Below, in pieces: positions 15,683 through 39,140 of a DNA stretch of 64,000 nucleotides; position 1 is the first letter of the stretch, and every line of letters begins with the position of its first letter. The notes under the pieces are model-generated. The model saw only the letters and a list, made by a program, of their open reading frames with translations. It was not told the DNA's origin and did not search any database. Position numbers and translations under genes: made by a program. The stretch lies in NCBI RefSeq assembly GCF_054482525.1, contig NZ_CM137006.1; one strand, given 5' to 3'.

Positions 15683-15736
15683 TGAACCGCCCCGGGAATC
15701 CTGGAGACTAAACTCCCTGAGAAAGAGGTAAACAGG

Positions 15737-16950: not shown

Positions 16951-16992
16951 GTTCACAGATAAAACACTCTCCAGGAAACCCGGGGCGGTTCA

Positions 16993-18649: not shown

Positions 18650-19311
18650 CGGTGTTCTCCTTAAATTTCAGTAAAAATAAGGTCATTTATTCTGGTCAAT
18701 ATGGCAGGTTTCGATGTTTATAGTTCTGAATACTATGGTGTTTTACACGTTCATTCTGGTTATTATACGTAGAAAAGAATTTATCGGGCAACGCCGAGAT
18801 GACGCGGCCCCGTTAAACCGTGTAGTGGTAGATGATGAGATCAGATACAGGGATCAACTGACGGTGAGCGCAGTCCCCACATTTTATCCGGAGTTTACCG
18901 CTATTCCCGGCTGCCATTCGTTAGCACAGGCCCGCAAGTACCCTGATTTGCCGCTGGTTTTGCTTTCCCATCGAAGGGCCCATACATCATCACGCCCGCG
19001 AAACAGTCGACAAAATAACGCAACTTTCTCATCCGTGGATAATACGGAAACGCACTGCACAGGACTCTGCGGTTTACGTCACCATTCAATCCCATAAGCT
19101 TCAAGTTATGTTTGCCCTCAGTGCAGCTAATTCATCACTGTCAGATTTATGAACCATATTCGTTACCTGTATCCGATCCACTGAGGCACCACGGCAGAAA
19201 TTCGGGTCCCCTACACTGATGACAAAGCGCCCCGCCCTCTTCTGCCTATTAACTCAAGCACCTCCCAACAACTTACAGAAACTTAATTCTAATACCTAAT
19301 ACAACTGTAAT

Positions 19312-19875
19312 TCAGTTATGTCGTGGTCGGCCCCGGTTGCTTTTTTCGGGAAGCCTGCTACGGCCCAGAATAATACCGTGTTCTTTCTGATCCTGTTTAG
19401 CCAGGTAGCTAAGGGCGTAACGTAAACCGTCTACCGCAGACTTATCACTATAGTGAATCACGTGATCGATACGCACCGGGTATTTGTCTTTAGTACTGCA
19501 CAGGTGAAAATAACCCTCCCCTTCCGTGATCCGACTCCAGATATCTCCCAGTTGCCTGGATATCCGATAAAATTTCTTGTGACGTTGCCCATCCAAGTAG
19601 CCGATAAAATGAATATGAAGTCCCTTGTTTGACGTATATTCCATTACCCAGTAATATCCCGCCAGCATCGTTTGGGTTTCACTAAGTAAGCGGTGCATTT
19701 CAATACACATACTGTGCCTACAGGAATGACCAAAACTGGGCGTGTCTTTCCTGTAGGCAAAATCAATTCTGAAAGGTAACAGTTTAGAAAAACGTTGAAA
19801 CAGACCTTCCATGTGTTCATTCACGTCTTTCAGAATCATGAAGTCCATTTCGTAATTGGGATTAGCATTATACAT
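19312..19875 (-). CDS. island-associated protein (YfjJ-like / inovirus Gp2-type family, by recollection)
   Basis: 187-aa ORF; character of CP4-57-type island backbone proteins; family assignment from memory only. Confidence 0.45.
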   Translation of the reverse strand: MYNANPNYEMDFMILKDVNEHMEGLFQRFSKLLPFRIDFAYRKDTPSFGHSCRHSMCIEMHRLLSETQTMLAGYYWVMEYTSNKGLHIHFIGYLDGQRHKKFYRISRQLGDIWSRITEGEGYFHLCSTKDKYPVRIDHVIHYSDKSAVDGLRYALSYLAKQDQKEHGIILGRSRLPEKSNRGRPRHN

Positions 19876-20695
19876 TTTATAGTCCTTACTTTATAAAAGT
19901 TACAGGAAGGTGGAATTACATAAATACTGAGAGTACAGAAACGCCGTACCGCGGCATTAATAAACGAGGTAACCAGCAGCACAGACAACCTGATAAAACT
20001 GTTTCGTATTACCTCATTACTCCAAAGAGGTAATATTTCAGAGTACAGTAAGACTCACTTAAACTGAGGACCAGTACGAATTACAATGGTAAAAACACAC
20101 CTCATAGAATTGAGTTTAAGGAAGTACCATTCAATCACTTACAGGAAGTAATCTGACATTCACAAAAGCCAGTATCGGGTAGCCACAGGCAACACCGCTA
20201 TTAATACTTCTGTACCATTAAGTAAAAACAGCGACCCAGCTTAAGGCCTCTACAGATATTTAACTTCACCATAAAAATGATGGTATACAGACCATACCCC
20301 ACACACCATAAGAATATTATTTCATACAGGAAAGATTATATTTTTTCATACCTATAAACTGTAACAGAGCCATAACATACTCTAATAGTGTTCCGGTACG
20401 TAACCAGTGTTAAGTGCGTACAAGACAACATAACAGATCACATAACTTCCACTAATAATACTAATTAACCTAAATTATTTATTGAACACGAAAACAATGA
20501 AGGCCCCACCTCACCTCAGACTAAAGCCGACAATATCCTGAGCAACACTCTATCCAATAGTAAATAGTGGTTACACCAGTTATATTTACTGACTGACCTG
20601 TACCAGAGTTTTCTAATACAACGCTGACATGGTAAAGACATTAGTCTCCTCCGCAAGTAGCAGAGGAGACTATATGTACTCAACGATTAAGTCGT

Positions 20696-22147
20696 TCAGA
20701 GGTCAAAGTTAGGTGCGACACACAACGTTTTTCCCTCAATAACCGGTACAACTCTGTTTTGTTCATACAGTAAATCCAGTAACCAGTTGATTTTATCCTT
20801 TTTCCGGAAACGGTTCGGACCACGCTGTAAAATGTCATTTTTTTTCATACAGAGGATCCCCTTCTCAATACAATAGCTTTTTATCCAGTTGAAAAGTTCA
20901 AGCTCCTCTGGAATGAGTCGCACAGGTACGGTCAGGGCAGAGTTGTCAAAAGTTAACGGATTAGACAACCGCACATACTCATTACCGTACCATATTGCTA
21001 ATTCTCTCGCCATTTCTGCAGTGTAAGGGGAAATCTCCCCCTCTTCACCGCTCGAATGGTAAATAAGTCCTGCCAATCTTGCCATATACTCTGCATTTTT
21101 AGCAGCATATTCCCGGCAATGTCTTAAAGGCCCCAATCCCCCCAGCTTCGATTCCACATCATTGTAATAATCCGTCCAGATTCTGGCAGCCTGAGGAGAA
21201 AAGTGAAGGCAACGTCGTTCACCACTCATCGCCAGACTTTCATCAATAAGCTCATTGATCCTCTCTTCAAACAAATCCTGATACTGTGATGAATAATTAT
21301 CTCCGGTTATTATCCTTGTCCCCTGCGTTGATGTTGGTTGACACATCAAAAACCTTGCATGATGTCCTGACGTTTTCACAATTTCTTTTTTTCGCGTACA
21401 AAAACCTTTGTGGTAAACATCAGGCTGAATCATCACCGATATCGTCAGTCTTGGCTCCTTCAAATTAATTCCGGGAGATGATTTCCTGTCGATGAAAAGA
21501 GAACCTCCATCCCACAAAGTGTTAATAATTCCCAGTTTACTCATGGCCCGGCTGTCAAAAATTACCCCCCCTTCACTGGATACAAGAGCAAAAGAGCGAT
21601 TGCTATCGGAGTAATATTTTAACATTCCCTCTATCGTTGTCTCATTAAAAATTGTTCGACGTATCTGCGGCGGAACAGGAGGTTTATTCAGATGCGTTTC
21701 AAGCTCTGATTCTGTTGCCTTGTAATCTTTACCGGCACGAATCTCTTTATGAAATTTTGATTCCAGCGCTTTTTGTTTTTGCTCCCATATTTCCTTTTCT
21801 GTACTGTAATTCTCAACCAGTTTCGCGTATTCTTCCGCCAGGGCTTCATCCCTGAGATAAAATGCTTTCATAAACACTTTATCCACGGTCGTTTTCCTTT
21901 CACCGGAATCAGCCAGAATCAGAGAGTAAAGATTAACAGGCCCATGTAAATTTCCAGGTCTGCATACGTCAATCTGATTCTGACAGGCAATTGAGATCGC
22001 TGTTAATGCGGATGTTGCCACCATAGCCAAAGGTGCCTGTGTATTTTTTTGAGTTTCAATTATTGCATTTCTCACCAGCGGTGGTAGTGCATATATCGGA
22101 TAAGGATTTTCTGGTGCAAGTAAGCACATAAAAGCCTCTCTTTTCAT
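20696..22147 (-). CDS. DUF3987-type (YfjI-like) island protein
   Basis: 483-aa ORF; resembles the large P-loop-less YfjI/DUF3987 proteins found beside AlpA in P4/CP4-57-like islands. Confidence 0.55.
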   Translation of the reverse strand: MKREAFMCLLAPENPYPIYALPPLVRNAIIETQKNTQAPLAMVATSALTAISIACQNQIDVCRPGNLHGPVNLYSLILADSGERKTTVDKVFMKAFYLRDEALAEEYAKLVENYSTEKEIWEQKQKALESKFHKEIRAGKDYKATESELETHLNKPPVPPQIRRTIFNETTIEGMLKYYSDSNRSFALVSSEGGVIFDSRAMSKLGIINTLWDGGSLFIDRKSSPGINLKEPRLTISVMIQPDVYHKGFCTRKKEIVKTSGHHARFLMCQPTSTQGTRIITGDNYSSQYQDLFEERINELIDESLAMSGERRCLHFSPQAARIWTDYYNDVESKLGGLGPLRHCREYAAKNAEYMARLAGLIYHSSGEEGEISPYTAEMARELAIWYGNEYVRLSNPLTFDNSALTVPVRLIPEELELFNWIKSYCIEKGILCMKKNDILQRGPNRFRKKDKINWLLDLLYEQNRVVPVIEGKTLCVAPNFDL

Positions 22148-22347
22148 TAATGGGTTAGTAAAATAGCAGCAAATCCCGCTACAATAGCGAAAATAGCTGC
22201 TATTCAGACCTGATGCTCTGAGAAATACAGAGCATTTGTAGATCTGATGTTTAATAAACCGATAAGGTTAATTCAGTGAAGACTGTATTATTCACCACGA
22301 AATATCATTCATATTTCTCATTCTTAATACCTCCAGAAATTATTTCA

Positions 22348-22680
22348 CTAATACCTTTCCCCCGGTCTTTTCCCTTTCTCCAGAACCATAGTGTAAATAT
22401 TAACGGCCCCACGTAAATTTCCGGGACTGCATACGTCAACCTGATTCTGACAGGCAATTGACATCGCTGTTAATACTGACATTGCAACCAGAGTCAGAGG
22501 TACTTGTTTATTGTATTGAACTTTAATTATTGCATTCCCTATCATTGATGGTCATGCATATACTGAATACGGCATATCCGGTTTGATGTAAGGCATAAAT
22601 GCTTCCTTTTTCGTAATACGTTTCGGTTATAGCAGCAATTACCGCTACAATAGCGACAATAGCTGCTCTTTCAACAATGA
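22348..22680 (-). pseudogene. diverged tandem duplicate of the 5' end and promoter of the DUF3987 gene
   Basis: 22380-22670 aligns at roughly 80 percent identity with 21900-22200; the 65-aa ORF 22348..22545 repeats the N-terminus of the 483-aa protein (VPLTLVAMSVLTAMSIACQNQVDVCSPGNL versus APLAMVATSALTAISIACQNQIDVCRPGNL). Confidence 0.5.
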
Positions 22681-22771
22681 ATGCTGGAAATTCTGTTTAT
22701 CAATTAAACTTCTGGCTAAATTGTTCTTATGCTTCTTTTTCCTCCTGAGGTGATCACGTGATGACAAAAAC

Positions 22772-23080
22772 TTATCTGCTCATGGTCATATCTGAAGAAA
22801 GCGTATGTCTCACTTCGTCATTAACACCTTTGACTGCTGATCTGGCAGGTACAGTATGTAAAGTAAGCCATTCGTCAATAGCTGATGAACGCCAGCCCAC
22901 AGAACCACTACCAAGACGTACCGGCCTGGGGAAGGTTGCATCGTAGTATTTCGATAACGGATTCATTTTTTCGTAAATTGTCGAACGAGATATACCTAAC
23001 AATTGGCTCAGTTCAGGCATCCGTAAGATGCGTGAAGGAGTCCTGCAGTGTCCGGATTGATCTGGCATTTTATCCCCCAT
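22772..23080 (-). CDS. alpA: AlpA-family transcriptional regulator / excisionase-like
   Basis: ORF 22772..23152; the region RILRMPELSQLLGISRSTIYEKMNPLSKYYDATFPRPVRLGSGSVGWRSSAIDEWL matches the AlpA HTH family; start codon uncertain. Confidence 0.6.
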   Translation of the reverse strand: MGDKMPDQSGHCRTPSRILRMPELSQLLGISRSTIYEKMNPLSKYYDATFPRPVRLGSGSVGWRSSAIDEWLTLHTVPARSAVKGVNDEVRHTLSSDMTMSR

Positions 23081-23229
23081 AGTGTGGTGAACTGTCGTTA
23101 CAGTTTGTATTCCCCGGGTAAATTTGTCTGCGTAAAAAAATGGGTTGAGCAAAAAGACAATAAATAATTAAAAATCAATATGATAGAAAACGACAGCATT
23201 AGTGTTATTTTACTTTTCCCTTATCGCTG

Positions 23230-23990
23230 TCGATTCTCATTATCATTCATGGCAAAAAAACAGCAAAAGAGGCCCTGGTAATGACTCCTGTCAGTAGTAC
23301 ATGTGTTTTCGATAAATGAACCAATGGCTTTTCGTGAATTTCCAGGGAGCGTAAAAAGTAAATCGTTTTCCGGGCAGGTCGTTTGATGTGAGTACGAAGT
23401 GTCAGATTGTTGCGCTCAATGCGCCGGGTAAATATCTTGCCGACAAGATGCTTATCCTGTGGCATTTCTCTGGTATAACTGCTCCGGTTGTCTCTGGTTA
23501 TCATGCCTGCGGAGAATGGCTTCAGGAATTCCGGCAACTCACGGCATGTTTCATCAGTGCGAGGACCAAAAGTGTAAGCCAGCACACCGTCAGCTTTGGT
23601 CTTATACGCGTACCAGTGCCACTGCTGACGAGCTTTGTTTTCGACAAAACTCCATTGTTCATCAAGTTCACAGATAAGTGCCACATCGACACTGGCGGCT
23701 GGAGATATGGTTACTTTACGTGGTGAGCGTTTTTTAAAGTGAGAATGACGGTGTTGATATCCACCTTCAGCGTTCTGGAGCTATCGCGAACCCCGGCTCC
23801 GTTATGAACCATTTCAACAATTTGCTCTTTAATGCCTGGTTTTCGGGTTTCGTAGATGTAATTCAGTTGAAATACACGTTTGCAGGATTAGCACTGGAAA
23901 CGCTCATGATCTGAGGTGCTGTGATCATAACGGTACACTTTATAGGAATTACAGCGGGGAGAATATACTGTAACTGTTGCCATATGGTCT
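23230..23990 (-). mobile_element. IS1-family element remnant (InsB-like ORF and InsA-like frame with premature stop)
   Basis: ORF 23247..23684 resembles IS1 InsB (ELDEQWSFV..., FTRRIERNNLTLRTHIKR); an upstream minus-strand frame starting MATVTVYSPRCNSYKVYRYDH is InsA-like but stops early; boundaries approximate. Confidence 0.45.
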
Positions 23991-24179
23991 CCAGATACCA
24001 ATAGAATACAACATTAATCTATCGTCAGAAGGCATCACCGGGGCCTTCTGACATAATCTGTTAATACGTGTACTATTACCCTGTTCAGAAAACATTGATT
24101 CAAAAATGAAAACCAGTTAACAGAAAAGCAAAATGATATAATGTTAAAATTTTATATAGTGCAATAAAAGGAGAATGTT

Positions 24180-25997
24180 ATGTATAATTTTATCACTATA
24201 ATGTATGATGTCTTTTCATGTTTTGGTGTTCTGGCTAAAAACCAGAATAGCCGTGACATCCGAAATATTAAAAATTTTTCCTCACATCAACATTCACTGG
24301 GCGACATGTTTGATGAATTAATAAACATTATTGATAAAGAACAAGTATTGAGTAAAGAACAACGAAAAGTTATATTTAGGAGATATGAAGATCTCTATGT
24401 TAAGCTAATGCACTATTCTGTTTTTACAGACAAAACACATCAAATAATAAAACAAAAATATTTTAATGACATTGTACCAATGATTCTCGCACTCGACATC
24501 AGGAACACATATCGCCCGGATAATGAGATGGCATTTTACTATCATATTCATTCTTTTCTCACTCAGATACCGGATAATGAGGATGATATATATCATGCTG
24601 CAAGGACATATCTGCGAAATTACGTTAAGTTATGTTTATCCGGATACACGCCAGCGAATGCGCATTTCAAAGATATCTTTGATGGCGTATATGAATTCAT
24701 TCGTAATATTCGCAAAAACAGTACACCAGGAAAAACAAAACTTATCGCAACTATCAACACATGCAAAGAAACCTGTAAACATCTGCTTTATTTAAGTAAT
24801 GAAGACAAGGAAAAAATAATTTCTGACTTAGATAAAGTTCAGGTTGCATGTTATTATCTCACTATATTACTGGCTTTCGAAAGACGAACTTCATTAACAA
24901 GCACCCTGGCAACTTTATATAAAATGCTGATAAGCGAAAGAGAAGTTTCAGAATATGAATGCCAGTTATTATATTTAACCAACCCAATAGATGTAATGAA
25001 TATACTGAACAAATACATATATTACTTTCCTAATGAGAACTCACCATTTTATACACTGAAAATTGACAGTGCATTATCGTGGGATGCCATTGACGCAATA
25101 CGAGACTATAGTATTTCTGATATTTATCTTTATCCTGAACAAAAAACAATAAATTGTGTCGTTGAGATTGAAAACATTGTCTTTGGCGGTTACATTTATA
25201 CATTGAACAACGGCGTCACATTACAAAACATAGAAAACTCTTTAAAAGATTCTTCATGCCATTATGTCTTAAATGGCTATACAGAATTTGTTAACTGTTT
25301 GAGACAACTTACTTCAGGAAAGACTGAAAGTGTTCATCGCACCATCAATAAACTGAACTATGAGAAATTACCTTTTGGATTTATCATTGCCGCGTTTGCT
25401 ATACTAAAGATAGCATTTAAAATAAAATTCAGTAAAAATCATGTAAATATCCGAGCATTATTAAATGACATCAATTATTTTATGACTTATCAGGGCGAGT
25501 CCATTAACCTTATTTCACTGGATCACGAATACCCAGAGTCCTGTCTTCAAAATGACACAAACACATATTTATTAGGAAGAGTAATATTTCTGTATAACTC
25601 AATGATTTATAAGTTCATAAACTGTCAGGAACATGAAACCAATAACATTCACTCAGCTATGATAAATAACCTATTACAGGAAGTTGATATAGCCCTTGGT
25701 AAAATAAATGACATTATAGACAGCAGAAACATATCAACCCCCCATGAACTGGCAAATATTCTTACCCGCGAAAAAATACTTACAACACGGGAAAAAAAAG
25801 GAAACCTGATAAGCCTGTTTGATGGATTCACTTTATTCCATTGTGTTGGAATGATAACCTTTCTTATCCATTATCTCAGAACACCTGAAGAAAAAGTTGA
25901 AAATATATTTATGTTATATGGTGCAGATAAAAACAATAAACTACGCAGAAGACTGATTTATGACGCACTAGGAATAATTCAGTCTCAGCAGGAGTGA
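24180..25997 (+). CDS. hypothetical protein (605 aa), strongly AT-rich orphan gene
   Basis: ATG at 24180 preceded by AAAGGAG (24167-24173); no motif recognised; composition far more AT-rich than the backbone. Confidence 0.6.
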   Translation: MYNFITIMYDVFSCFGVLAKNQNSRDIRNIKNFSSHQHSLGDMFDELINIIDKEQVLSKEQRKVIFRRYEDLYVKLMHYSVFTDKTHQIIKQKYFNDIVPMILALDIRNTYRPDNEMAFYYHIHSFLTQIPDNEDDIYHAARTYLRNYVKLCLSGYTPANAHFKDIFDGVYEFIRNIRKNSTPGKTKLIATINTCKETCKHLLYLSNEDKEKIISDLDKVQVACYYLTILLAFERRTSLTSTLATLYKMLISEREVSEYECQLLYLTNPIDVMNILNKYIYYFPNENSPFYTLKIDSALSWDAIDAIRDYSISDIYLYPEQKTINCVVEIENIVFGGYIYTLNNGVTLQNIENSLKDSSCHYVLNGYTEFVNCLRQLTSGKTESVHRTINKLNYEKLPFGFIIAAFAILKIAFKIKFSKNHVNIRALLNDINYFMTYQGESINLISLDHEYPESCLQNDTNTYLLGRVIFLYNSMIYKFINCQEHETNNIHSAMINNLLQEVDIALGKINDIIDSRNISTPHELANILTREKILTTREKKGNLISLFDGFTLFHCVGMITFLIHYLRTPEEKVENIFMLYGADKNNKLRRRLIYDALGIIQSQQE

Positions 25998-26183
25998 AGA
26001 GTTAAACAGGCAAATTATTTTTTATAAAAAGGGGATTGTTAAGTAATCCCCTGTTAATCAAAATACGCTTTCCTGACGATCTGATAATTATCAGCTCAAT
26101 ACATTTGACATAAAAGCGGTTTCTTAATTACTACTGCTACGATCACATATCAAATCATGATCGTACAATATACATTTTCACTA

Positions 26184-27386
26184 TTATTTATTCACAATTT
26201 GAGACATCACATAATCCGCCCATGCCTGCATCATCGGTACACGCTGCTCCAGTAGATCAGTACGATGATATGCCGCCTCAACCTTATTTTTCAGCGTATG
26301 AGCGAGCGCCCTTTCCGCCAGATCCCGCGAATACCCCTGTTCGCTACACCAGTCCCTGAATGTTGAGCGAAAACCATGTGCCGTGGCAACTCGCCCCGGA
26401 ATGTCACTGACGGCTTTCTTTTTACGCAGAAAACTTGTCAACACCATATCGGAAAGGATCTGCTGCTTTCTGGGTGAAGGGAACACCAGTTCATCATGCA
26501 GGCCACGTATATTTTCCAGAATGTAAATAGCCTGCCGGGATAAAGGAACACGATGCTGTAGCCTAGCTTTCATTCTTTCTGCAGGTATAGTCCATACCCG
26601 CTTATGAAAATCAATTTCAGCCCAGCGCATTCCCCTGGCTTCGCCCGAGCGAGTTGCTGTAAGTATCACCATTAATAACAGTGCGCGGGTAACATTATAA
26701 GGTTCATCGGTATACACACTGGTCGCCACAAAAAGCGGTAACTGCCTCCAGGGCATTGCGGGTTGGTGTTCATCACGTCCTCTTGTCTGCTGAGGAAGCA
26801 AATGGTCAACCACATCAACAGGATTTGCTACACAAAAACCGTGCGCCCATCCCCACTGCATAACAACATGAATGCGCTGTTTAACCCGGCTTGCCGTTTC
26901 TGACAAGGTTAACCAGACTGGACGCAGTGTTTCTGCCACGTCCGCAGCCGTAATCGAATCCAGCGTTTTTGCTCCCAGTTGAGGAAACGCGTAATTCTCA
27001 AGCGTCGATAACCACTGCCTTACATGCTTTGGATTTTCCCATCCAGGAGACAGTTCTGCATGTACACGCCTGGCTGCATCGGCAAATGTTGGGATAGCGA
27101 CTTTCTCAGATTCAGCCTTTTTAATCTCCAGAGGATCATCACCTGCAGCAAGTTGCTCTCGCATTATCCGGGCAGTACGTGCAGCTTCAGCAATACTGAC
27201 CTCTGGGTAAGTTCCCAATCCAGCATTACGTCTTTTTTGTGTCACCGGACTTACATAACGAAAAACCCATTTCCCCCGCCCCTTTACTGAAGAAGGATGA
27301 AGGGTCAGTCCGGTAATTCCCCCATGGGGCAATGGTTTGTCATCAGGTTTGATATGTCTTGCTTTCGTATCCGTCAATACTGCCAT
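26184..27386 (-). CDS. int: tyrosine site-specific integrase (P4/CP4-57 IntA-like)
   Basis: 400-aa ORF with phage-integrase C-terminal catalytic region (...HGFRSTFRDW...LAHTL...AYHRTDL); N-terminus lies about 160 bp from the island-end direct repeats. Confidence 0.85.
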   Translation of the reverse strand: MAVLTDTKARHIKPDDKPLPHGGITGLTLHPSSVKGRGKWVFRYVSPVTQKRRNAGLGTYPEVSIAEAARTARIMREQLAAGDDPLEIKKAESEKVAIPTFADAARRVHAELSPGWENPKHVRQWLSTLENYAFPQLGAKTLDSITAADVAETLRPVWLTLSETASRVKQRIHVVMQWGWAHGFCVANPVDVVDHLLPQQTRGRDEHQPAMPWRQLPLFVATSVYTDEPYNVTRALLLMVILTATRSGEARGMRWAEIDFHKRVWTIPAERMKARLQHRVPLSRQAIYILENIRGLHDELVFPSPRKQQILSDMVLTSFLRKKKAVSDIPGRVATAHGFRSTFRDWCSEQGYSRDLAERALAHTLKNKVEAAYHRTDLLEQRVPMMQAWADYVMSQIVNK

Positions 27387-27546
27387 ACGCTAATTCCCGT
27401 CACTCTGGTATGCCATCCAGTATGCCATTAGTCTCTCGCTTCACTAAGAATACATTAGATAATATCGGACAACAAAAAGTGTAATACATTGTTTATAATG
27501 AAATTATATAACACCCCTGGATTAAGTCAGATTTATTTCAGGCGGT

Positions 27547-27606
27547 CCCCCTCACCGCCATATTCAAAGAAGAGCTCGTACGAAAGTGCGAGCTTTTTTT
27601 TCGCAT
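27547..27606 (+). repeat. direct repeat copy 1 containing a tRNA 3'-end-like motif (TCCCCCTCACCGCCA) and a terminator-like hairpin plus T-run
   Basis: Near-identical to 27724-27785 (one substitution and one indel); the ...CTCACCGCCA end resembles the acceptor/CCA end of tRNA-Ser. Confidence 0.5.
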
Positions 27607-27723
27607 ATTGCACTCCAGGGGGGATGAGAAGCCCCGACCGGGGTTCGACAACTGGCGCAGCCAGTTGGACAGACCACGAACGCAGTGAGTGGGCTGCCCG
27701 CAGGGCGAGCGAAGCGAGTCAAT

Positions 27724-27785
27724 CCCCCCCCTCACCGCCATATTCAAAGAAGAGCTCGTACGAAAGTACGAGTTTTTTTTCGCAT
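27724..27785 (+). repeat. direct repeat copy 2 containing a tRNA 3'-end-like motif (AATCCCCCCCCTCACCGCCA) and a terminator-like hairpin plus T-run
   Basis: See copy 1; this copy has a longer match to a tRNA-Ser T-arm/acceptor 3' strand, but no complementary 5' acceptor strand (GGTGAGG) exists upstream, so it is not an intact tRNA. Confidence 0.5.
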
Positions 27786-28083
27786 TTTATCTGCCTGTAC
27801 GGCAGTGAACGGTATAAAAATCGAGTTTTTCTTTCGGTTGGCTTTCTAAGCTGCCTGTACGGCAGTGAACTCAAATACTACACGTCTAGCCCGTTGTTAA
27901 TAAAGCAAAACCATCTCATTTTCCTGCTACCACCCTTTTTTATCCTTACCTTCCCGCAGCACTAATTATCAACAACTTACAATCATCATCAAAAAAAGGG
28001 TCTGAACCTCCTCCACCCCATAAATAAAAAGTCCGTAACCTCTTTCGAGATTACGGACTTCACCAACCTACCTAACAATTAGA

Positions 28084-30360
28084 TTAATGCGTTGCTTCCG
28101 CCTTGTGCTTTTGTGCACTCTGGAATCCGTAAGTCAGCTCATTTTTCTCTTTATCCAGCGCGACGGTGACCTGACCGCCGTCCACCAGCGAACCAAACAG
28201 CAGTTCGTTGGCGAGCGGTTTTTTCAGGTTGTCCTGGATGACACGCGCCATCGGACGTGCGCCCATTGCCCGGTCGTAACCTTTCTCGGCCAGCCAGTTA
28301 CGCGCTTCCTGGCTCACTTCCAGAGAAACACCTTTCTGATCCAACTGAACCTGCAACTCGACGATGAATTTATCCACTACCTGATGGATCACGTCGGTGG
28401 AGAGATGATCGAACCAGATAATGTTGTCGAGACGGTTACGAAACTCCGGCGTAAAGATCTTCTTGATCTCTTCCATCGCATCGGTGCTGTTGTCCTGGTG
28501 GATAAGACCAATCGATTTACGCTCAGTTTCTCGTACCCCAGCGTTGGTGGTCATCACCAATACCACGTTACGGAAGTCCGCTTTGCGTCCGTTGTTATCG
28601 GTCAGCGTACCGTTGTCCATCACCTGCAACAGAATATTGAACACGTCCGGGTGCGCTTTCTCGATTTCGTCCAGCAGCAGCACCGCATGTGGATGCTTGA
28701 TGACCGCATCAGTCAGCAAACCGCCCTGATCAAAACCAACGTATCCCGGAGGCGCACCAATCAGACGGCTGACGGTATGGCGTTCCATATACTCGGACAT
28801 ATCAAAGCGCAGAAGCTCAATGCCCAAAGCTTTCGAAAGCTGTACCGTCACCTCTGTTTTCCCGACCCCGGTAGGGCCTGCAAACAGGAACGAACCGACC
28901 GGTTTATGTTCGTGACCTAAACCTGCACGCGCCATCTTAATGGCTTCAGTCAGCGCCTCAATGGCTTTATCCTGACCGAAGACCAGCATTTTCAGGCGAT
29001 CGCCGAGGTTTTTCAGGGTATCGCGGTCACTCTGAGAAACACTCTTCTCTGGAATGCGTGCAATACGGGCCACCACGGACTCAATATCCGCCACATTAAC
29101 GGTTTTCTTGCGTTTGCTTACCGGCATCAGGCGTGCGCGAGCGCCCGCTTCGTCGATAACGTCAATGGCTTTATCCGGCAGATGACGATCGTTAATGTAT
29201 TTCACCGCCAGCTCTACCGCTGCACGCACCGCTTTTGCGGTATAACGCACGTCGTGGTGCGCTTCATACTTCGGTTTCAGGCCATTGATGATTTGAACAG
29301 TTTCTTCGATCGACGGTTCAGTAATATCAATTTTCTGGAAGCGACGCGCCAGAGCACGGTCTTTCTCGAAAATGTTGCTGAACTCCTGATAGGTTGTCGA
29401 ACCAATTACGCGAATTTTACCGCTGGAGAGCAGCGGTTTGATCAGGTTAGCCGCATCGACCTGGCCACCAGAGGCTGCACCCGCACCGATAATGGTGTGG
29501 ATCTCATCAATAAACAGGATGCTGTTAGTATCCTGCTCCAGCTGCTTGAGCAACGCTTTAAAACGTTTTTCAAAGTCGCCGCGATATTTAGTGCCCGCTA
29601 ACAGAGAACCGATATCGAGAGAGTAAATCGTACAGTCAGCCATCACTTCCGGCACATCGCCCTGAACAATTCGCCAGGCAAGACCTTCCGCAATCGCGGT
29701 TTTACCGACACCAGATTCCCCCACCAGCAGCGGGTTGTTTTTACGGCGACGGCAGAGAACCTGAATAGCACGCTCCAGCTCCTTCTCACGACCAATCAGT
29801 GGGTCGATTCCGCCCACACGCGCAAGCTGATTCAGGTTCGTCGTGAAATTCTCCATACGTTCCTCCCCACCAGCTTGTTCTTCGCTGTTTGGCTGGCTGC
29901 CAGGATCAGAAGACTGTGTCGGCTCGTCTTTACGCGTGCCATGAGAGATAAAGTTCACCACATCGAGACGGCTGACTTCATGTTTACGCAACAGATATGC
30001 CGCCTGCGACTCCTGTTCGCTAAAGATAGCGACCAGAACGTTTGCACCGGTAACCTCATTGCGACCGGAGGACTGGACATGGAAGACCGCACGTTGCAGT
30101 ACACGCTGAAAACTCAGCGTCGGCTGTGTGTCGCGCTCCTCTTCACTGGCAGGCAGAACGGGTGTGGTTTGTTCAATAAAGGCTTCCAGTTCCTGACGGA
30201 GCGCAACCAAATCCACAGAACACGCTTCCAGCGCCTCCCGGGCAGATGGGTTACTGAGCAGCGCCAGTAACAAGTGCTCGACGGTCATAAACTCATGACG
30301 GTGCTCGCGCGCTCTGGCGAAAGCCATATTTAAACTGAGTTCCAGTTCTTGATTGAGCAT
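28084..30360 (-). CDS. clpA: ATP-dependent Clp protease ATP-binding subunit ClpA
   Basis: ORF 28084..30375; protein begins [35 protein letters not shown]...; two AAA+ modules ([16 protein letters not shown]). Confidence 0.95.
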
Positions 30361-30390
30361 AGGCACCTCCCCCAATTTTTATGCCTGCAT

Positions 30391-30711
30391 TCAGGCTTTT
30401 TCTAGCGTACACAGCAATGGATGCTCATTCTCCCTCGCGTACTTGTTCACCATCGCCACTTTGGTTTCTGCAACCTCGGCGGTAAAGACTCCGCAAATGG
30501 CCTTCCCCTGGTAGTGAACAGCGAGCATCAATTGCGTTGCACGTTCTACATCATAAGAAAAGAATTTTTGTAACACGTCAATAACAAACTCCATCGGAGT
30601 GTAATCATCATTGACTAATATCACTTTATACATAGATGGCGGTTTTAGCGCGTCGCGAACTTTTTCTTCCGCCAGTTGATCAAAGTCCAGCCAGTCGTTC
30701 GTTTTACCCAT
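30391..30711 (-). CDS. clpS: ClpA adaptor protein ClpS
   Basis: 106-aa [50 protein letters not shown]...; immediately upstream of clpA. Confidence 0.95.
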
Positions 30712-30795
30712 TGTCAGTTATCATCTTCGGTTACGGTTATCGGCAGAACGCCCTGCCGCTGACAAGAGCTTATTTGCCTGACCAATCTACTCCAC

Positions 30796-30813
30796 ATGAT
30801 AGATAACTATCAT
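30796..30813 (+). repeat. putative attL core (ATGATAGATAACTATCAT), imperfect 18-bp direct repeat of 41786-41803
   Basis: 17/18 identity with the copy next to cspD; itself palindromic (ATGATAG/CTATCAT arms); lies at the left junction of the satellite-like element. Confidence 0.55.
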
Positions 30814-31497
30814 TTATATCATTTAGTTAATTAGTCTTTATTTTTCATTATGTTGCAAATAACAAGCCCGTCAAAAACAGTGATATTAACTACACCATTA
30901 ACTACACCGCTTCACGAACAATATCGAACAACCGCGAACAAAGATCAACACGCTTTAATCATTATCATTTTCCGGCTATCCGTCATGAAGCTGGTGGATG
31001 ATCTGCGTGGTGATTTCCACCATTCAGAGCAGGGGCGGTCATCATGACCATGCCATAACAAAAACCCCATATTCGTGGTTTTTCTGTGTCGGGGCTATTC
31101 TGCTGTTGCCGTGCTGGTGGATATTCTCCGGTATGCGGCTCCCCATATCGGCATCAGGCCCACCAGCGTGAAGCGTTTTTCATTTTTCGCGGGTATAAAA
31201 AATCGATGGGGCTGGCAGTCCTGAAGACGTCAGGGTACGGAGATTTGACCCGCCCCTCCCTGTGCATGAGCACAATAAGTAACCGAAGGCGGAATTCCGC
31301 CCTCGGTACTTACATATGAGAAACGATATTTCTTCCACCGATACCCTTTATTTGGGTATTGCGAGTAAGCCCCAAAATCTGGGTGTTACTCTTACTACCC
31401 AAACTACGGGTAGTTTCCGTAGTTTCATGGTCGAGTTGCAAATCTGCAACTCACCCACCAGCCAACGCAATTTTGCGTTATCGGGAATATCAGCAAG

Positions 31498-31785
31498 TTA
31501 CCGCCGCAGTCGTTCCGGCTTCTTCCACTGGTAAGTATTTTTCGCGCTCTCCCTCCGTTGTTGAGAACGGCGACGGTATGCCAGCAACTCAAGGACTCTG
31601 GTTCGTATGTTGCGCATATCCACGCCGTTAAGCTCAATACCATCACGGCGCATCACCTCAGCAACAACACGCGCGTAATTTTCAGCGGTGACTGTATCCG
31701 GCTGCGCGGCCTGTTCGTCAGCCAACTGGCTGATTCCACCAGCACAGCGGATTAATCGCAGTATTTCAGATTCGGTCATTATCAT
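31498..31785 (-). CDS. hypothetical protein (95 aa), packaging-module associated
   Basis: ORF whose start overlaps the small-terminase gene stop (4-bp overlap); function unknown. Confidence 0.45.
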   Translation of the reverse strand: MIMTESEILRLIRCAGGISQLADEQAAQPDTVTAENYARVVAEVMRRDGIELNGVDMRNIRTRVLELLAYRRRSQQRRESAKNTYQWKKPERLRR

Positions 31786-32270
31786 GCCTGTTTTGCGACC
31801 TCATTCACTACGTCATTTTTTACCATCCGGCTGATAATCTGATTACACAAATCGTCAATAATTGACTGCACTCTGTTTACTGCCATCGGTTTAAGCCCGG
31901 CATCACGTGCCAGAATATTGGGGAGTTTTGCCAGTTCCTCGCTTACGATTTCCCCCCATATAGCCATCTCTTTTCGCACATCATCGGCGGGTATGAGTTG
32001 CGCCGTTTCCTGTTCGAACTTGAGGCGTTCACGTTCGGACTGATACCAGGCCTTACGGTCATGTGGCTCCATTTCTTCCAGTGATGCCGGAACGGGAAGA
32101 TCAAGAAAACAGGTCAGAATGTCAGTCACCCGATAGAGTTTCAGCTTGTCATGCCCTCCGGCTGGCTGGATGTTTTTCAGCCTTGCCGCCGCAGTCTGAC
32201 GACATATTCCCGCTATCGCCGCCAGTTGATTAATGTTCAGCATCAGATTTTTCAGTTCTCGATCCATACC
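31782..32270 (-). CDS. phage terminase small subunit-like protein
   Basis: ORF 31782..32354; likely start at MDRELKNLMLNINQLAAIAGICRQTAAARLKN (HTH typical of TerS/Nu1-like proteins). Confidence 0.55.
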   Translation of the reverse strand, partial: GMDRELKNLMLNINQLAAIAGICRQTAAARLKNIQPAGGHDKLKLYRVTDILTCFLDLPVPASLEEMEPHDRKAWYQSERERLKFEQETAQLIPADDVRKEMAIWGEIVSEELAKLPNILARDAGLKPMAVNRVQSIIDDLCNQIISRMVKNDVVNEVAKQA

Positions 32271-32523
32271 CGCTCCAGAATGTTTTAAACATGCATCTTG
32301 CGAACAACTTTCAGAAGAGGTCAAAAAATGCGCTATATGTTGAGCATAAAACAAGCAAAATTAACATGCCAAAAATAAAAATACTTAAAATTCAATACAA
32401 TATGAAGATGATGATGACGAATGAAAATGCAAAAACTAGCCTTTTTCCGCGCCGCTCCCGCCCCGTGGCAGACCACTCCACCGGGAGGACCCGTAAAAAA
32501 GGCGGCTGTCGCCGCCCTTGTTG

Positions 32524-34437
32524 TCATGCTCCACTCGATTTCAGTAATCCGCGATAATCGAGGGCCGCGACACCTGCATCTATGCGCACTTTCCAGGCGA
32601 CACCATCAACAGTAAAGCCCACCTGCTCCTCAAGATATGGCGTATCCATACCATCAAGATAAGCGACTTCTATTGTGTCCATCCCCTTAGCTGCGGCTAC
32701 ATACCATTCCTTGCTATTGGCCTTATCAAGACGTGGCTCAACAATTACTTCTGCCATATCTTTCACCACGTTAATGATGCCGGGGTTCTGATTGATAGTG
32801 CTCTCATCACCAACCGGAAAGACTGATGACGATGACAGAATGGCGCGACGCGCGGCAGATTCCAGCGCGGCAGGGACCAGAACAAAAGCAGGGGTAATAT
32901 TCAGTGAGTCGCCGTTAGCATCCTCCTGGAGGCGCATCAGCTTACGGGCTTCATCAAGCCCCACCATGTCCATATCCTTCGCAATAAGATTTTTATGATC
33001 GGCATGGAATAACGCTTTACCATCCGTAAATTTGCCGTTGCTGGTTAACAGAAGATAAACCAGATTACCTACTGTTCTGGCGGCCGCACGCCCCATCGCC
33101 ATGGGGATTGTAGTTAACTGGGTCAGGTCATCGTTGATAATGGCCTGACGGGTAACAGAAAAAATATTACCGTATGTGGCCAGCGCAATAGGTACACCTT
33201 TATCGCTGGTGGTGATGTATTTATATTCCGCACCTTCCGGTACTTTATCCAGCTTTGAAAAACCATTCAGACCAACGCGCTTTGCTTCATGAAAGTTTGA
33301 AAGCGATCCGGTACGCGTCCATTTCTGGAACGTTTCGCCGCTGTCCTGCCAGCCTTTCAGCACTGATTTTTCAGCACCACCAGCCAGAATATGAGAAAAA
33401 TCGCTGCTGCTGTGTGTGAAAGCTGCATTAACGACCTGCGAGCGATTTAAAAAACTGCCAACACTGATACCACGATCAGTTAGTGATGCCTGGGCCATTT
33501 CAAAAAGGCTCATCATCGCGTAAGGATTTCCCCGCTCTGGGCGTTCATACCCAAGACGAGAATAAAGCCCCTGACGAATTGCATCGCCTGTTATGTTCCC
33601 GTTACCGGCATAAATATGAGTCGGGATATTTTTATTGGATGGCGTGGACTCGCGCCCCAGCTCGTTCAACAACTTTTCACGGGCCATCTCCGGTGTACAT
33701 GATGCATCCTCCAGGCACGCCATTTTGATCCCGTCGTAACGACTGCCGAACAGGCTAAACACTTCACTTATTCCGTTGATGCGCTTCTGTTCATTACCAG
33801 CAATATTGGCTGCTCCCTGTGGCGGGGTAATCATTCCTTTAATGGTTTCAGGCATGTGTGAAAAATCTCCTGTGCGTTTCGATTCAATTCGCGCCATTGC
33901 TGTGACAGATGGCAACAATTCATCAGCAAAACCGTGCTTAAGGCATTCTTTCCCGTCCATCCAGGTTTCATCTTCCAGCATGGCGGTAATTTCCTGTGCT
34001 GATTTGCCCGTTTTTCTGGCATAAGCAGGGACTAACACGGTTTCCACCTTATCCAGCAAATCAGCATAATCACGCATATCACCAGCATTTCCGCCAGAGA
34101 TACCCCACGGCTTATGTATCATCATCATGGCGTTTTCCGGCATCACAACACGATCGCCAGCCATTGCGACAACCGAAGCCATTGAAGCCGCAACACCATC
34201 GATATAAACCGTAATTTCTGCCGGATGATTCCGTAACAGGTTATAGATGGCGATGCCTTCAAACACGTCACCACCTGGCGAATGGATCCGCAGGTCGATA
34301 TGTGAGACATCGCCCAGGGCTTTCAGGTCTTCCGCAAACTGCTTCGCGGTAATACCGAAGCCGCCAATTTCTTCATAGATGGATATTTCTGCCGCTCCGC
34401 GAACACCCAGCGCCTTAATGGTGTACCAGTGATTCAT
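32524..34437 (-). CDS. fusion of ClpP-like prohead protease and HK97-type major capsid protein
   Basis: 637-aa ORF; N-terminal about 190 aa resemble ClpP/S14-type serine protease (HSPGGDVFEGIAIYN...MASVVAMAGDRVVMPENAMMMIHKPW); the remainder resembles HK97-fold major capsid proteins. Confidence 0.65.
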   Translation of the reverse strand: MNHWYTIKALGVRGAAEISIYEEIGGFGITAKQFAEDLKALGDVSHIDLRIHSPGGDVFEGIAIYNLLRNHPAEITVYIDGVAASMASVVAMAGDRVVMPENAMMMIHKPWGISGGNAGDMRDYADLLDKVETVLVPAYARKTGKSAQEITAMLEDETWMDGKECLKHGFADELLPSVTAMARIESKRTGDFSHMPETIKGMITPPQGAANIAGNEQKRINGISEVFSLFGSRYDGIKMACLEDASCTPEMAREKLLNELGRESTPSNKNIPTHIYAGNGNITGDAIRQGLYSRLGYERPERGNPYAMMSLFEMAQASLTDRGISVGSFLNRSQVVNAAFTHSSSDFSHILAGGAEKSVLKGWQDSGETFQKWTRTGSLSNFHEAKRVGLNGFSKLDKVPEGAEYKYITTSDKGVPIALATYGNIFSVTRQAIINDDLTQLTTIPMAMGRAAARTVGNLVYLLLTSNGKFTDGKALFHADHKNLIAKDMDMVGLDEARKLMRLQEDANGDSLNITPAFVLVPAALESAARRAILSSSSVFPVGDESTINQNPGIINVVKDMAEVIVEPRLDKANSKEWYVAAAKGMDTIEVAYLDGMDTPYLEEQVGFTVDGVAWKVRIDAGVAALDYRGLLKSSGA

Positions 34438-34643
34438 TGCTCCCCCCCAGATGCAAAACCATTCTTATCAAGCCACGCGTTAACCGCGTGTCTGACAATC
34501 TGCGCCGCACCTGGTAATGGTTGGTCAGGATGATGATTTATGTGGTCGATCCTGTACTGCTTAAGGCGCATAACGGTCTGCGCATCCAGATGAACGGAAC
34601 CACCTTTTACCTCGCCTGTGTTCAGGTCGTTAATACAATTCAC
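34434..34643 (-). CDS. hypothetical small protein (69 aa)
   Basis: Stop overlaps the capsid-fusion start by 4 bp (translational coupling). Confidence 0.4.
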   Translation of the reverse strand: MNCINDLNTGEVKGGSVHLDAQTVMRLKQYRIDHINHHPDQPLPGAAQIVRHAVNAWLDKNGFASGGEQ

Positions 34644-35066
34644 AGTAACTTCCTCTTACTGACTAAACTGCGCGCATTATTGATCGATAAAAGTGGTAGA
34701 TAAACATATTTCTATCATAAAAATAGATTAATCAGATTCAGACACAAAAAAGCCGGAGAGAATCCGGCATAAATATCCCGCCATCTGAACACGTTTTGCA
34801 CAGGCAACTCCATCTGGCAGGTGAAAAACAAATTTATTTATATATTTCAATTAATTGCAAACTGGTCTAATGACAGGGAGAAAAAAATATTGTACAGGTG
34901 AAAACAGAAATAACTTTTAATTATCAATAAATTACTACACATGCTGCCGCCGCCATGAAAATGCAAAAACCAGCCTTTTTCCGCGACGCTCCCGCCCCGT
35001 GGCAGGTCACTACACCGGGAGGACCCATAAAAAAGCCGGATTGCTCCGGCTTCTGTTACTCGTTGC

Positions 35067-35489
35067 TTAAAACGGTATGTTATCCCCGTACGGATCATCA
35101 TTTCCCGCCTGTTGTTTTGCTCTGCTCAGTGCATCAGTAGCCTGCCCCTGTTGGCCTTTTTTGCCGCCCGGTCGCGCCGTTCTCGCACTGATTACGCTGT
35201 CTGCGATAACCTGCCAGCCCTGCCGCGTCTCCCCGTTCTGTCCGGTCCACTGGCTCACCTGCATGTTACCCGCCACGCTCAGGAGTTCACCCTTGCGGTG
35301 CTTTGCCAGTGCTTCGGCCTGTCTGCCAAACGCCAGGACGGATAACCACATCGTCGCCGTTCCGTCATCTGCCTGGCTGCACGGAAGTGGGACCGCCATA
35401 CTCGCCATCGTCATTTGTGTACCCTTGCTGGTGGTCTTTAACTGCGGGTCAGCCACCAGCCGCCCGTAAGCCGCTATCTGTGCTGTCAT
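35067..35489 (-). CDS. ssb: single-stranded DNA-binding protein (SSB-like)
   Basis: 140-aa ORF with OB-fold-like N-terminus, Gly/Gln-rich linker and acidic tail ending DDPYGDNIPF (SSB C-terminal DDDIPF-type motif). Confidence 0.65.
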   Translation of the reverse strand: MTAQIAAYGRLVADPQLKTTSKGTQMTMASMAVPLPCSQADDGTATMWLSVLAFGRQAEALAKHRKGELLSVAGNMQVSQWTGQNGETRQGWQVIADSVISARTARPGGKKGQQGQATDALSRAKQQAGNDDPYGDNIPF

Positions 35490-35731
35490 GCTGTCTGCTC
35501 TCCGGTTTTAACGTTGATGGTTGTCACCTGTTCCGCTTCGGCAATCTCCCGTTCTGTCAGCGTGGCAAAGTTTGCAGCTGCCGTTGTCATGAATGAGCTA
35601 ATCAGTTCGGGATGTGCTTTCGCATATCCTTCCCCGGCGTTGCGGTCGATGATTTTTATCGACACCCTTAACCAGTGTTCCGTCAAATCAAGGGCGTGCG
35701 ATTGTGATTTTTTTGTGTGCTTCGCTGTCAT
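35486..35731 (-). CDS. hypothetical small protein (81 aa)
   Basis: ORF with a 4-bp overlap to ssb; sits between the iteron origin and ssb. Confidence 0.4.
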   Translation of the reverse strand: MTAKHTKKSQSHALDLTEHWLRVSIKIIDRNAGEGYAKAHPELISSFMTTAAANFATLTEREIAEAEQVTTINVKTGEQTA

Positions 35732-35782
35732 AGGCTTTATCTCACAGCAGTAAATTAAAATTTTTGCGTTTTAACCCTTCAC

Positions 35783-36005
35783 CTGTTCACCTTTTGATAT
35801 TTTATCTTTTAATTCATAATGTTAAGGGGTGAACAGTTTCACAAAAACTATTCACCAACTGTTCACCACTGTTCACCCTTGAAGCTCAATAAACAATCAA
35901 AAAGGTGAACAGTGAATAGTTTGGTGAACAGTTCATAAATAACTGTTCACCCTATAACATACTGATACAAAAGATATTTATGACAGGGTGAACAGTGGTG
36001 AACAG
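35783..36005. repeat. iteron cluster, putative replication origin (9 copies of GTGAACAG/CTGTTCAC)
   Basis: 8-mer copies at 35783, 35829, 35859, 35869, 35905, 35924, 35943, 35988, 35998 in both orientations within an AT-rich tract immediately downstream of the primase gene. Confidence 0.6.
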
Positions 36006-36018
36006 TTATTCCATAAGT

Positions 36019-38132: not shown

Positions 38133-38138
38133 GATTAT

Positions 38139-38991: not shown

Positions 38992-39088
38992 AGCGACCTC
39001 GATACTATCGTTATCGTTGGTGGTTAGAAGCCCCGTTACTGCTCCAACAGTGCGGGGTTTCGTCGTTTCTGCACCTTGCATCAACAAG

Positions 39089-39140
39089 GTGTTGAACACC
39101 AATGTAAACTCAGGTGTTGAACACGTCAAGTGTTGAACAC
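39089..39140. promoter_or_regulatory. three perfect 11-bp palindromic repeats GTGTTGAACAC (putative operator sites) in a divergent promoter region
   Basis: Copies at 39089-39099, 39114-39124, 39130-39140, between the minus-strand gene block and the plus-strand small gene at 39191. Confidence 0.55.

Follow-up and report, generated by a model that had tools for sequence, protein, structure and literature searches.

The window analysed here, a stretch of 64,000 nucleotides, carries two direct copies of a tRNA-Ser-like 3' end beside an integrase gene next to clpA, and the question that it raises is whether both copies are scars of integration. We are highly confident that three known elements lie side by side in the region, namely a serW island junction, an RtT unit, and a CRISPR relic. 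The junction is the well-known right-hand one of an E. coli genomic island integrated at serW, and all parts of the locus were previously known or annotated. The order at the junction is integrase, att core, terminator, RtT unit, terminator, CRISPR mini-array, and clpA (Table 1). What this analysis demonstrated is how the locus is built, which sequence forms the core, that island-free strains also carry the repeats, and that RtT structure is conserved. No complete E. coli genome was more than 98.6% identical over 27390-28090 plus the island.

Table 1. Features of the serW-clpA junction in the window
Feature	Position	Strand	Basis or remark
P4-family tyrosine integrase, 400 aa	26184-27386	-	ORF; Pfam domains; phrog_1 integrase; transcribed away from the att site
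Island-side arm, integrase start to att core	27387-27546		Present only in island-bearing genomes
Promoter-like site for int	27530..27503	-	Consensus match only
Inverted repeat GGCGGT-CCCCCTC-ACCGCC across the junction	27541-27559		Read from the sequence
attR core ("ser'W"), last 14 nt of tRNA-Ser(GGA), CCCCCTCACCGCCA	27547-27560	+
Native serW intrinsic terminator, proximal copy	27561-27602	+	Hairpin -21.4 kcal/mol, z = -6.0, then T8
RtT-type repeat unit, Ser subtype	27604-27740	+	Rfam RF00391, 41.3 bits, E = 1.8e-6
Distal serW terminator copy closing the RtT unit	27741-27782	+	Hairpin -18.2 kcal/mol, z = -5.9; terminator-like site 27747-27780
Orphan type I-F CRISPR mini-array (CRISPR4.1-2), between RtT unit and clpA	27783-27870	-	Rfam CRISPR-DR4
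CRISPR degenerate repeat	27783-27810
CRISPR spacer, 32 nt	27811-27842
CRISPR canonical repeat	27843-27870
clpA terminator hairpin	28028-28061	-
clpA	28084-30360	-	First chromosomal gene past the island; aligns with annotated clpA of ETEC1738 and other strains

The direct repeats and the island junction at serW

The repeat search returned the pair 27547-27600 and 27727-27780 (54 nt, 96% identity, 180 nt from start to start), and the match of the repeat family stretched to approximately 62 nt (27547-27609 and 27727-27788). Both copies of approximately 60 bp carried CCCCCTCACCGCCA and a strong terminator hairpin, and the 13-mer CCCCTCACCGCCA occurred exactly twice in the 64 kb, at 27548 and 27728. 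The hairpins and T-runs following the two copies both gave z values near -6 (Table 1), and 0 of 200 shuffles folded as well. The sequence-only reading, which had described two such repeats with a tRNA-Ser-end-like motif, a hairpin, and a T-run, placed 117 bp apart, was confirmed on these points; the gap runs from 27607 to 27723. It had also reported no intact tRNA, and ARAGORN likewise called no tRNA or tmRNA gene in the whole 64-kb window. The Rfam tRNA model gave zero matches within 27300-28100, even at E values up to 10; thus, neither program recognized a tRNA cloverleaf where it was applied in the window.

The translation of the integrase gene revealed the R...HxxR...Y residues and the architecture of a tyrosine recombinase, with an N-terminal arm-binding and a C-terminal catalytic domain (Pfam Arm-DNA-bind_3, 3e-15; Phage_int_M, 6e-24; Phage_integrase, 1.5e-19). 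Sequences with an identity of at least 99% to the integrase and att core occurred in 1042 complete E. coli genomes, O157:H7 and CFT073 among them, and matches covering at least 80% of the query were found in 1258 of the 5426 genomes. Over 1377 bp, the nucleotide identity of the integrase was 99.9% to the O157:H7 strains and 99.5% to CFT073. The earlier claim that the integrase marks the island end beside clpA was supported; the matches of other genomes start exactly at 27547.

The core sequence CCCCCTCACCGCCA is the reverse complement of TGGCGGTGAGGGGG, the published 14-bp direct repeat of OI-43, OI-48, and the SRL PAI, for which excision by site-specific recombination has been demonstrated (PMC3064760; PMC7545054); the OI-43/48 and SRL-PAI integrases are 99% identical (PMC3064760). 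These islands (OI-43 and OI-48 of O157:H7 EDL933, SpLE1 in Sakai, and the SRL PAI of Shigella flexneri) use the same target, serW or serX, their direct repeat is identical to the window core, and their integrase adjoins a cryptic ser'W on the clpA side, as in the window. The base preceding the core is T, compared with C in the tRNA. Because the alignments of other genomes start at 27547 and the core is the published repeat, copy 1 is the attR ("ser'W") of an island of the SRL-PAI/OI-43/OI-48/SpLE1 family.

The proximal terminator is found directly 3' of intact serW in island-free strains, and in the window it is displaced from its tRNA by the island. A consensus terminator scan missed this copy, the hairpin of which was clear on folding; the extended stem probably takes up the T-run, which leaves the tail rule of the scan unmet.

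In the proposed mechanism, a large island of this family would have integrated into the 3' end of serW, with the P4-family integrase recombining the 14-bp core common to island and tRNA. At the far end (attL), the tRNA would be kept intact and would gain a terminator brought by the island; the near end (attR, 27547) would retain the 14 nt with which serW originally ended, the native terminator, and all native downstream sequence. The inverted repeat across the junction looks like paired core-type recombinase binding sites around a 7-bp overlap, a role that we infer from its sequence. The predicted attP junction of the excised island circle is GGCGGT-CCCCCTC-ACCGCCA-GATTATAAG, and integrase-dependent excision of this copy is putative, by analogy with the related islands.

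The far island end and related islands

Among the genomes with the same junction, the closest was ETEC1738, which matched the window at 99.0% over 18825-30817. Its order is infA, intact tRNA-Ser, an island of approximately 91 kb, int, core, terminator, RtT, and clpA; serW thus adjoins infA approximately 91 kb away, the same core stands at both island ends, and an island-borne terminator lies 3' of serW at attL. The intact serW of the source genome probably lies beyond the window start, judging from relatives and chiefly from ETEC1738, and the sequence-only reading, which had suggested that it may lie there, is very probably right in this respect. The other island end in the source genome would consist of infA, an intact serW ending in CCCCCCCTCACCGCCA, and then island DNA.

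Left of 18825, the window departs from the ETEC1738 island. The earlier suggestion that the left part of the window is island DNA was supported: window 1-25000 is island DNA in other strains, and this cargo is also found at serX in strain AH62. The window carries DeoR-type regulators, a MalX-like PTS transporter, a MalY/PatB lyase, an annotated 'enterotoxin', and a large IS-split helicase/kinase gene, and thus differs from OI-43, the cargo of which is the ter/ure/iha set. The aspartate racemase and DcuA genes of the SRL PAI (PMC7545054) are present in the AH62 island copy further left, outside the part common to the window.

The second repeat and the RtT-type unit

The 117 bp between the copies, on which the sequence-only reading had not remarked, form an RtT-type element. 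The window copy matched the full length of RF00391 at a score marginally below the gathering score of 45 and carries an extra C in its C-run; the equivalent units in EF7-18-51, EC17CM6, and K-12 serX scored above the threshold (45.1-48.6 bits). A stretch 100% identical to the window unit is annotated 'RtT sRNA' in RM14723, and the unit was the top match, at 151.5 bits, to a Ser-type model that comprised units from 24 other loci and the window copy itself. The unit closes with 20 nt (27721-27740, AATCCCCCCCCTCACCGCCA) that duplicate the tRNA-Ser 3' end. Folded alone, the window unit showed no significance (z = -1.4). The GTACGAGTTTT terminator variant of the distal copy was also found at the clpA-proximal position in ETEC1738 and EC17CM6.

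Were both copies att scars, whether from two integrations in succession or from a tandem island that has since decayed, the 117 bp would be the remnant of an element, and two direct tRNA 3'-end copies around a short insert beside an integrase do have the geometry of att remnants. We regard this explanation as very improbable. The identical arrangement follows intact serW directly in strains without an island, and at least one RtT unit lies on the clpA side at serW in 1029 of the 5426 complete E. coli genomes (approximately 19%). An att duplication would not include the chromosomal terminator, into which the repeat reaches, 45 nt beyond the tRNA end. Between the copies lies a conserved structured unit that also occurs after tRNA-Tyr, and this insert had no match in 50,697 phage records. 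Moreover, the identity to the tRNA extends over 14 nt at copy 1, the true junction, compared with approximately 20 nt at copy 2, which fits different origins.

The island-free strains also settle what the sequence-only reading had made of the repeats. It had taken both copies for partial att copies, which holds for copy 1 but not for copy 2, and had suggested successive integrations or a tandem remnant, which fails because the island-free EF7-18-51, RM14723, and EC17CM6 carry the same tandem: a tRNA end with its terminator, followed by an RtT unit that itself closes in a tRNA end and terminator. The sequence-only reading had itself named the presence of the repeats in island-free genomes as a finding that would refute it. 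Copy 2 is the 3' end of an RtT-type unit plus a duplicated serW terminator, not an att scar.

That 27604-27740 could instead be a decayed serW duplicate, that is, a tRNA pseudogene, might be argued from its last 20 nt and from GGGGTTCGA, which matches the 5' half of the tRNA T-arm. This origin is likewise highly unlikely, as ARAGORN and the Rfam tRNA model call no tRNA, the acceptor 5' strand, D-arm, and anticodon arm are all absent, and the stretch matches both the RtT model and the locally built model R1 over its full length, showing conserved covarying helices of its own.

Under the preferred reading, in which copy 2 belongs to an RtT-type unit, one such unit would natively have followed serW in this lineage and supplied the second direct repeat. 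In this module of approximately 180 bp, a structured core of 117 bp is followed by 20 nt copied from the tRNA 3' end and by a terminator copy, and in the window it now appears to be cut off from the serW promoter by the island.

RtT units across strains and genera, and the neighboring CRISPR relic

Island-free serW was followed by no unit in D6 and Xuzhou21, by one in EF7-18-51 and RM14723, and by two in EC17CM6, and RtT units are annotated downstream of K-12 serX (three or four) and tyrT-tyrV (four). Copies of the 60-bp repeat would most plausibly allow units to be gained or lost, by replication slippage or by unequal homologous recombination between them. Across 120 loci of many genera, the RtT motif was located approximately 61-70 nt past tRNA-Tyr(GTA), tRNA-Ser(GGA), or tRNA-Ser(GCT), and most units of these loci ended in a copy of the last 19 nt of their own tRNA. 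The hosts were tRNA-Tyr(GTA) and tRNA-Ser(GGA) in Enterobacterales and tRNA-Ser(GCT) in Pseudoalteromonas and a Mariprofundus metagenome-assembled genome. Where the T-stem and 3' end differed between host tRNAs, the closing helix and first hairpin of the units differed correspondingly.

The window unit fits the pattern of this family, in which tandem units of approximately 180 bp stand directly 3' of a tRNA gene and end in a copy of roughly its last 19 nt: the spacing is 180, and the same unit follows intact serW in island-free strains. It resembles the RtT RNA of tyrT-tyrV, or rttR (RF00391), a tandem unit of the same length directly 3' of the tRNA gene that ends in the last 19-20 nt of that gene, and both have the same conserved core (TGAGAA..CGAC..GGTTCGA ... 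CCCG.AGGGCGAG ... GAGT.AATCC) and the same closing helix. The window unit is of the Ser subtype and ends in the tRNA-Ser 3' end, whereas the tyrT units end in that of tRNA-Tyr; the Ser units scored 41-49 bits with the Tyr-based Rfam model, compared with 133-138 bits for the tyrT units. A strong intrinsic terminator precedes each Ser unit but not the tyrT units, and the window unit, unlike these, is parted from its tRNA by an island.

We further analyzed the structure of the family. In 25 Ser-type units, 93.8% of cells were paired and 9 pairs had compensatory changes. With all types taken together (107 distinct units), compensatory changes were seen at 23 of 27 pairs and 89.5% of cells were paired, compared with 40-59% in slid controls, and 0 of 500 shuffles reached as high a value; this alignment was fitted to the model, which favors structure. 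When Tyr and Ser units were mixed in one plain MAFFT alignment, RNAalifold recovered almost no structure, and the covariation signal needed a Ser-only or model-guided alignment. The RtT units are a conserved structured element.

The tyrT RtT or rttR units are attributed to Bosl and Kersten 1991 by citing sources, which report a stable RNA processed from the tRNA transcript for tyrT only. In contrast to that RNA, a terminator and the island stand between the window unit and the serW promoter. Given the strong terminator before each unit, an RNA-level role of RtT at serW and serX is putative.

An idea of origin that is compatible with the main reading is that RtT units are ancient relics of miniature non-autonomous integrative elements, or still are such elements, which enter tRNA 3' ends carrying a replacement 3' end; this would explain why units end in the end of their own tRNA. 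In its favor, units are found behind three tRNA species and in each case carry the 3' end of that species, with which the 5' strand of the closing helix covaries; the number of units also differs between strains. Nevertheless, we consider the idea unlikely. No recombinase is linked to the units, their fixed distance after the tRNA in many genera suggests vertical inheritance, and the units covary as a folded RNA does, not as recombinase sites would. Tandem duplication is also a simpler account of the changes in number. The RtT unit had zero matches in the 50,697 phage records, and its plasmid matches, among those listed, were mostly records of 160 kb-4.9 Mb, several of them chromosome-sized; records that large do not clearly point to small mobile plasmids as a vehicle of spread.

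The units of serW and serX each hold the complete 14-bp integrase core and six more tRNA bases, and they could be mistaken for att sites or join in integrase-mediated deletions. A chimera of the RtT 3' part and the left end of the ETEC1738 island was found in 0 of 5426 genomes, which are not independent events, in a search that covers only islands with an ETEC1738-type left end; the best matches were all tRNA-Ser plus the island end. This lack of island-to-unit joins suggests that the integrase may read more of the tRNA than the 20 nt copied by the unit. It is conceivable, although less likely than not, that RtT-type units reach well beyond the tyrT operon as a widespread structured family associated with those tRNA genes whose product has a long variable arm.

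RtT units provide additional native copies of tRNA 3' ends at serW, serX, and tyrT, and they can mislead the calling of island boundaries from direct repeats. An annotation pipeline could place attR 180 bp outside its true position or report tandem integrations where there had been none. Integration at serW swaps the tRNA's own terminator for an island-borne one and shifts the RtT unit tens of kilobases from the serW promoter, and this separation is a natural test of whether RtT needs co-transcription with the tRNA. Beyond island annotation and RtT expression, the locus is ordinary.

Between the RtT unit and clpA, we also observed a two-repeat type I-F CRISPR array (27783-27870) that had gone unremarked in the sequence-only reading. 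Its repeats scored 50.1 bits (above threshold) and 29.7 bits (below) with CRISPR-DR4, with no cas genes on either side as far as clpA and the island. A CRISPR4.1-2 array between clpA and infA has been described in E. coli (PMC3903273); the known array has a 28-nt I-F repeat, one 32-nt spacer, clpA as its neighbor, and no cas genes, and the window array appears to be of this orphan form. The leader-distal repeat of the window array is degenerate, and nothing notable sets the array apart. The spacer is common to ETEC1738 and EC17CM6 and differs from those of EF7-18-51, D6, and Xuzhou21.

The first repeat and the island junction

The window carries an integrase-like ORF, two direct repeats, and clpA in this order (table). 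The repeat search aligned 27547-27600 with 27727-27780 (54 nt, 96% identity, spacing 180), and family D4 of this search lengthened the match to approximately 62 nt. Exactly two instances of the core CCCCTCACCGCCA are present in the window, each with a hairpin and a T-run behind it (-21.4 kcal/mol for copy 1 and -18.2 kcal/mol for copy 2, z approximately -6). ARAGORN found no tRNA across the 64-kb window, and an Rfam search around the repeat site gave no tRNA match. Repeat search, folding, ARAGORN, and Rfam thus confirmed the features noted in the sequence-only reading, namely two repeats with hairpins and T-runs beside an integrase and no intact tRNA.

Features of the clpA-proximal region and of the flanking DNA in the window
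Feature	Coordinates	Strand	Content
Helicase-like and kinase-like ORFs	12366-18649		1063 aa and 605 aa
IS3-family transposase gene	16060-16950		between these two ORFs
Integrase ORF	26184-27386	-	400 aa
Copy 1	27547-27609		direct repeat
14-bp match	27547-27560		reverse complement of TGGCGGTGAGGGGG
RtT unit	27604-27740		inter-copy stretch and tRNA-like end of copy 2
C-run	27724-27731		end of RtT unit
Copy 2	27727-27788		direct repeat
CRISPR4 mini-array	27783-27870		two type I-F repeats, one 32-nt spacer
Spacer	27811-27842		GGTATAAAAATCGAGTTTTTCTTTCGGTTGGC, read on the + strand
clpA		-	
Insertion	30796-41803		approximately 11 kb, between clpS and cspD
Tyrosine integrase	40381-41619	-	within the insertion

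In most of the 5426 complete E. coli genomes searched, the alignment started exactly at 27547, and the 157 bp to the left of this position were joined to this intergenic region in only 200. The direct repeat published for OI-43 and OI-48 of O157:H7 EDL933 and for the Shigella SRL PAI, where it flanks the islands, reads TGGCGGTGAGGGGG (PMC3064760; review, PMC7545054). Excision of OI-43 and OI-48 through recombination between these repeats has been demonstrated; the same study places an integrase beside a cryptic ser'W towards clpA and an intact serW towards infA (PMC3064760). The integrase ORF exhibited the domain set of P4-family integrases; together with the core, it reached 99% identity or more in 1042 genomes, among them O157:H7 strains (99.9%) and CFT073 (99.5%). 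The domains, the alignment boundary, and the published repeat support the earlier proposal that the integrase marks the island end next to clpA, and copy 1 is the island junction.

Strain ETEC1738, which matches window 18825-30817 at 99.0%, has the order infA, intact tRNA-Ser, an island of approximately 91 kb, integrase, core, terminator, RtT, and clpA. At its left junction the tRNA end ...CCCCCCCTCACCGCCA is followed immediately by an island-borne terminator hairpin; integration thus keeps serW intact and swaps its terminator. Except for one IS, window 1-25000 is colinear with the serX island of strain AH62, which continues leftward beyond the matching part for at least another 20 kb. This colinearity bears out the view that everything in the left part of the window belongs to an island, and with the ETEC1738 order it indicates that, as had been guessed, an intact serW very probably lies beyond the window start.

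The second repeat as part of a native RtT unit

The sequence-only reading had taken both repeats for att-type partial tRNA copies left by successive integrations or a tandem remnant. This interpretation stands for the junction at copy 1 and for the tRNA outside the window, but not for copy 2. The inter-copy stretch and the tRNA-like end of copy 2 gave a full-model match to Rfam RtT (RF00391; 41.3 bits, E = 1.8e-6), slightly below the gathering score of 45; a run of 8 C at the unit end, compared with 6-7 in other strains, probably accounts for this narrow miss. NCBI annotates the orthologous stretch as 'RtT sRNA' in many genomes. Among island-free strains, intact serW is directly followed by one unit in EF7-18-51 and RM14723, two in EC17CM6, and none in D6 and Xuzhou21. 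The same tandem thus occurs as such without the island, an outcome that the sequence-only reading had itself named as refuting it, and copy 2 is no att scar. A query requiring a unit adjoining the clpA side was at least 80% covered in 1029 of the 5426 genomes.

The repeated module consists of a terminator, a 117-bp core, and 20 nt of the tRNA 3' end; because it includes the terminator, the repeat reaches well beyond the tRNA end. Copy 1 has only 14 nt in common with the tRNA and copy 2 approximately 20. Four units occur at tyrT-tyrV, and K-12 serX has three annotated units versus four by covariance model. The additional full unit lies at 2687-2818 of the serX locus of K-12 RV308 (L007; 143.4 bits). 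In practice, the RtT units native to serW, serX, and tyrT pass for att duplications.

The full 14-bp core is present in every RtT unit, which makes a role as secondary attachment site possible. A chimeric query fusing an RtT end with the left end of the ETEC1738 island was used; this junction was found in no genome searched, and the best matches all joined the island end to a true tRNA. The evidence from this query is weak, since the genomes do not represent independent integrations and the left end differs among islands.

Structure and distribution of RtT units

Across 25 Ser-type units, a five-helix structure was 93.8% paired with 9 compensatory pairs. The covariance model built from them had the window copy as its best match (151.5 bits) and sole match in the window, and also recovered Tyr and Ser(GCT) units. 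In the resulting alignment of 107 distinct sequences, which was fitted to the model and therefore leans towards the structure, 23 of 27 pairs changed on both sides, 89.5% of cells were paired versus 40-59% in slid controls, and no shuffle reached the observed values. No match to the RtT unit was found in phage records. According to the literature, rtT RNA is a processing product of the tyrT transcript and may be linked to the stringent response. A strong terminator precedes the RtT unit at serW, and the island separates the window unit from the serW promoter; the window copy is therefore probably silent.

A motif common to Tyr and Ser units (TGAGAA N4 CGAC N3 GGTTCGA), scanned in one genome per species, occurred at no fewer than 120 loci. 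Among the matches listed, it lay approximately 61-70 nt after a tRNA, or further downstream by at least one unit of approximately 170-185 bp. The hosts in these matches were Tyr(GTA) in 72 cases, Ser(GGA) in 74, and Ser(GCT) in 9, the last from Pseudoalteromonas and one Mariprofundus metagenome-assembled genome (L046); the remaining 31 include chance matches and incomplete loci. Only these three tRNAs, all with a long variable arm, served as hosts among the matches listed (L011-L130), which covered many Enterobacterales besides the two genera above. In most of the listed units, the end is a near-perfect copy of the host tRNA's last 19 nt. The first hairpin and TTCGA copy the host T-stem and half of the T-loop. 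In the closing helix, the 5' strand tracks the host: GGGGAAGG with 3' strand CCTTCCCC for Tyr(GTA), GGGGGG with CCCCCC for Ser(GGA), and, for Ser(GCT), GAGAAGG with CCTTCTC in Pseudoalteromonas and AGAGAGGG with CCCTCTCT in Mariprofundus. This wide distribution and the covariation with the host tRNA are the only part possibly worth a separate look.

CRISPR relic, island cargo, and neighboring insertion

The mini-array is CRISPR4.1-2, an orphan array already known from the clpA-infA region (PMC3903273). Its spacer is common to the window, ETEC1738, and EC17CM6; EF7-18-51, D6, and Xuzhou21 each carry another CRISPR4 spacer. The locus combines elements that are already known: the island junction is well described, the CRISPR relic is described, and the RtT unit is annotated.

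DeoR-type regulators, a MalX-like PTS transporter, a MalY/PatB lyase, and an annotated 'enterotoxin' are carried at serX in AH62 and at serW in the window. Left of 18825, the window is unlike the urease-carrying island of ETEC1738. The pattern across the three fits a common integrase module with mosaic cargo. The helicase-like and kinase-like ORFs correspond to a single 1652-aa 'AAA domain' gene in AH62, indicating that the window copy was interrupted by an IS. The insertion relative to ETEC1738 has an 18-bp direct repeat at either end (ATGATAGATAACTATCAT and ATGATAAATAACTATCAT); it also encodes an Icd-like protein, a P4-family primase, SSB, and a ClpP-like prohead protease/major capsid fusion protein, and resembles a capsid-encoding phage satellite.
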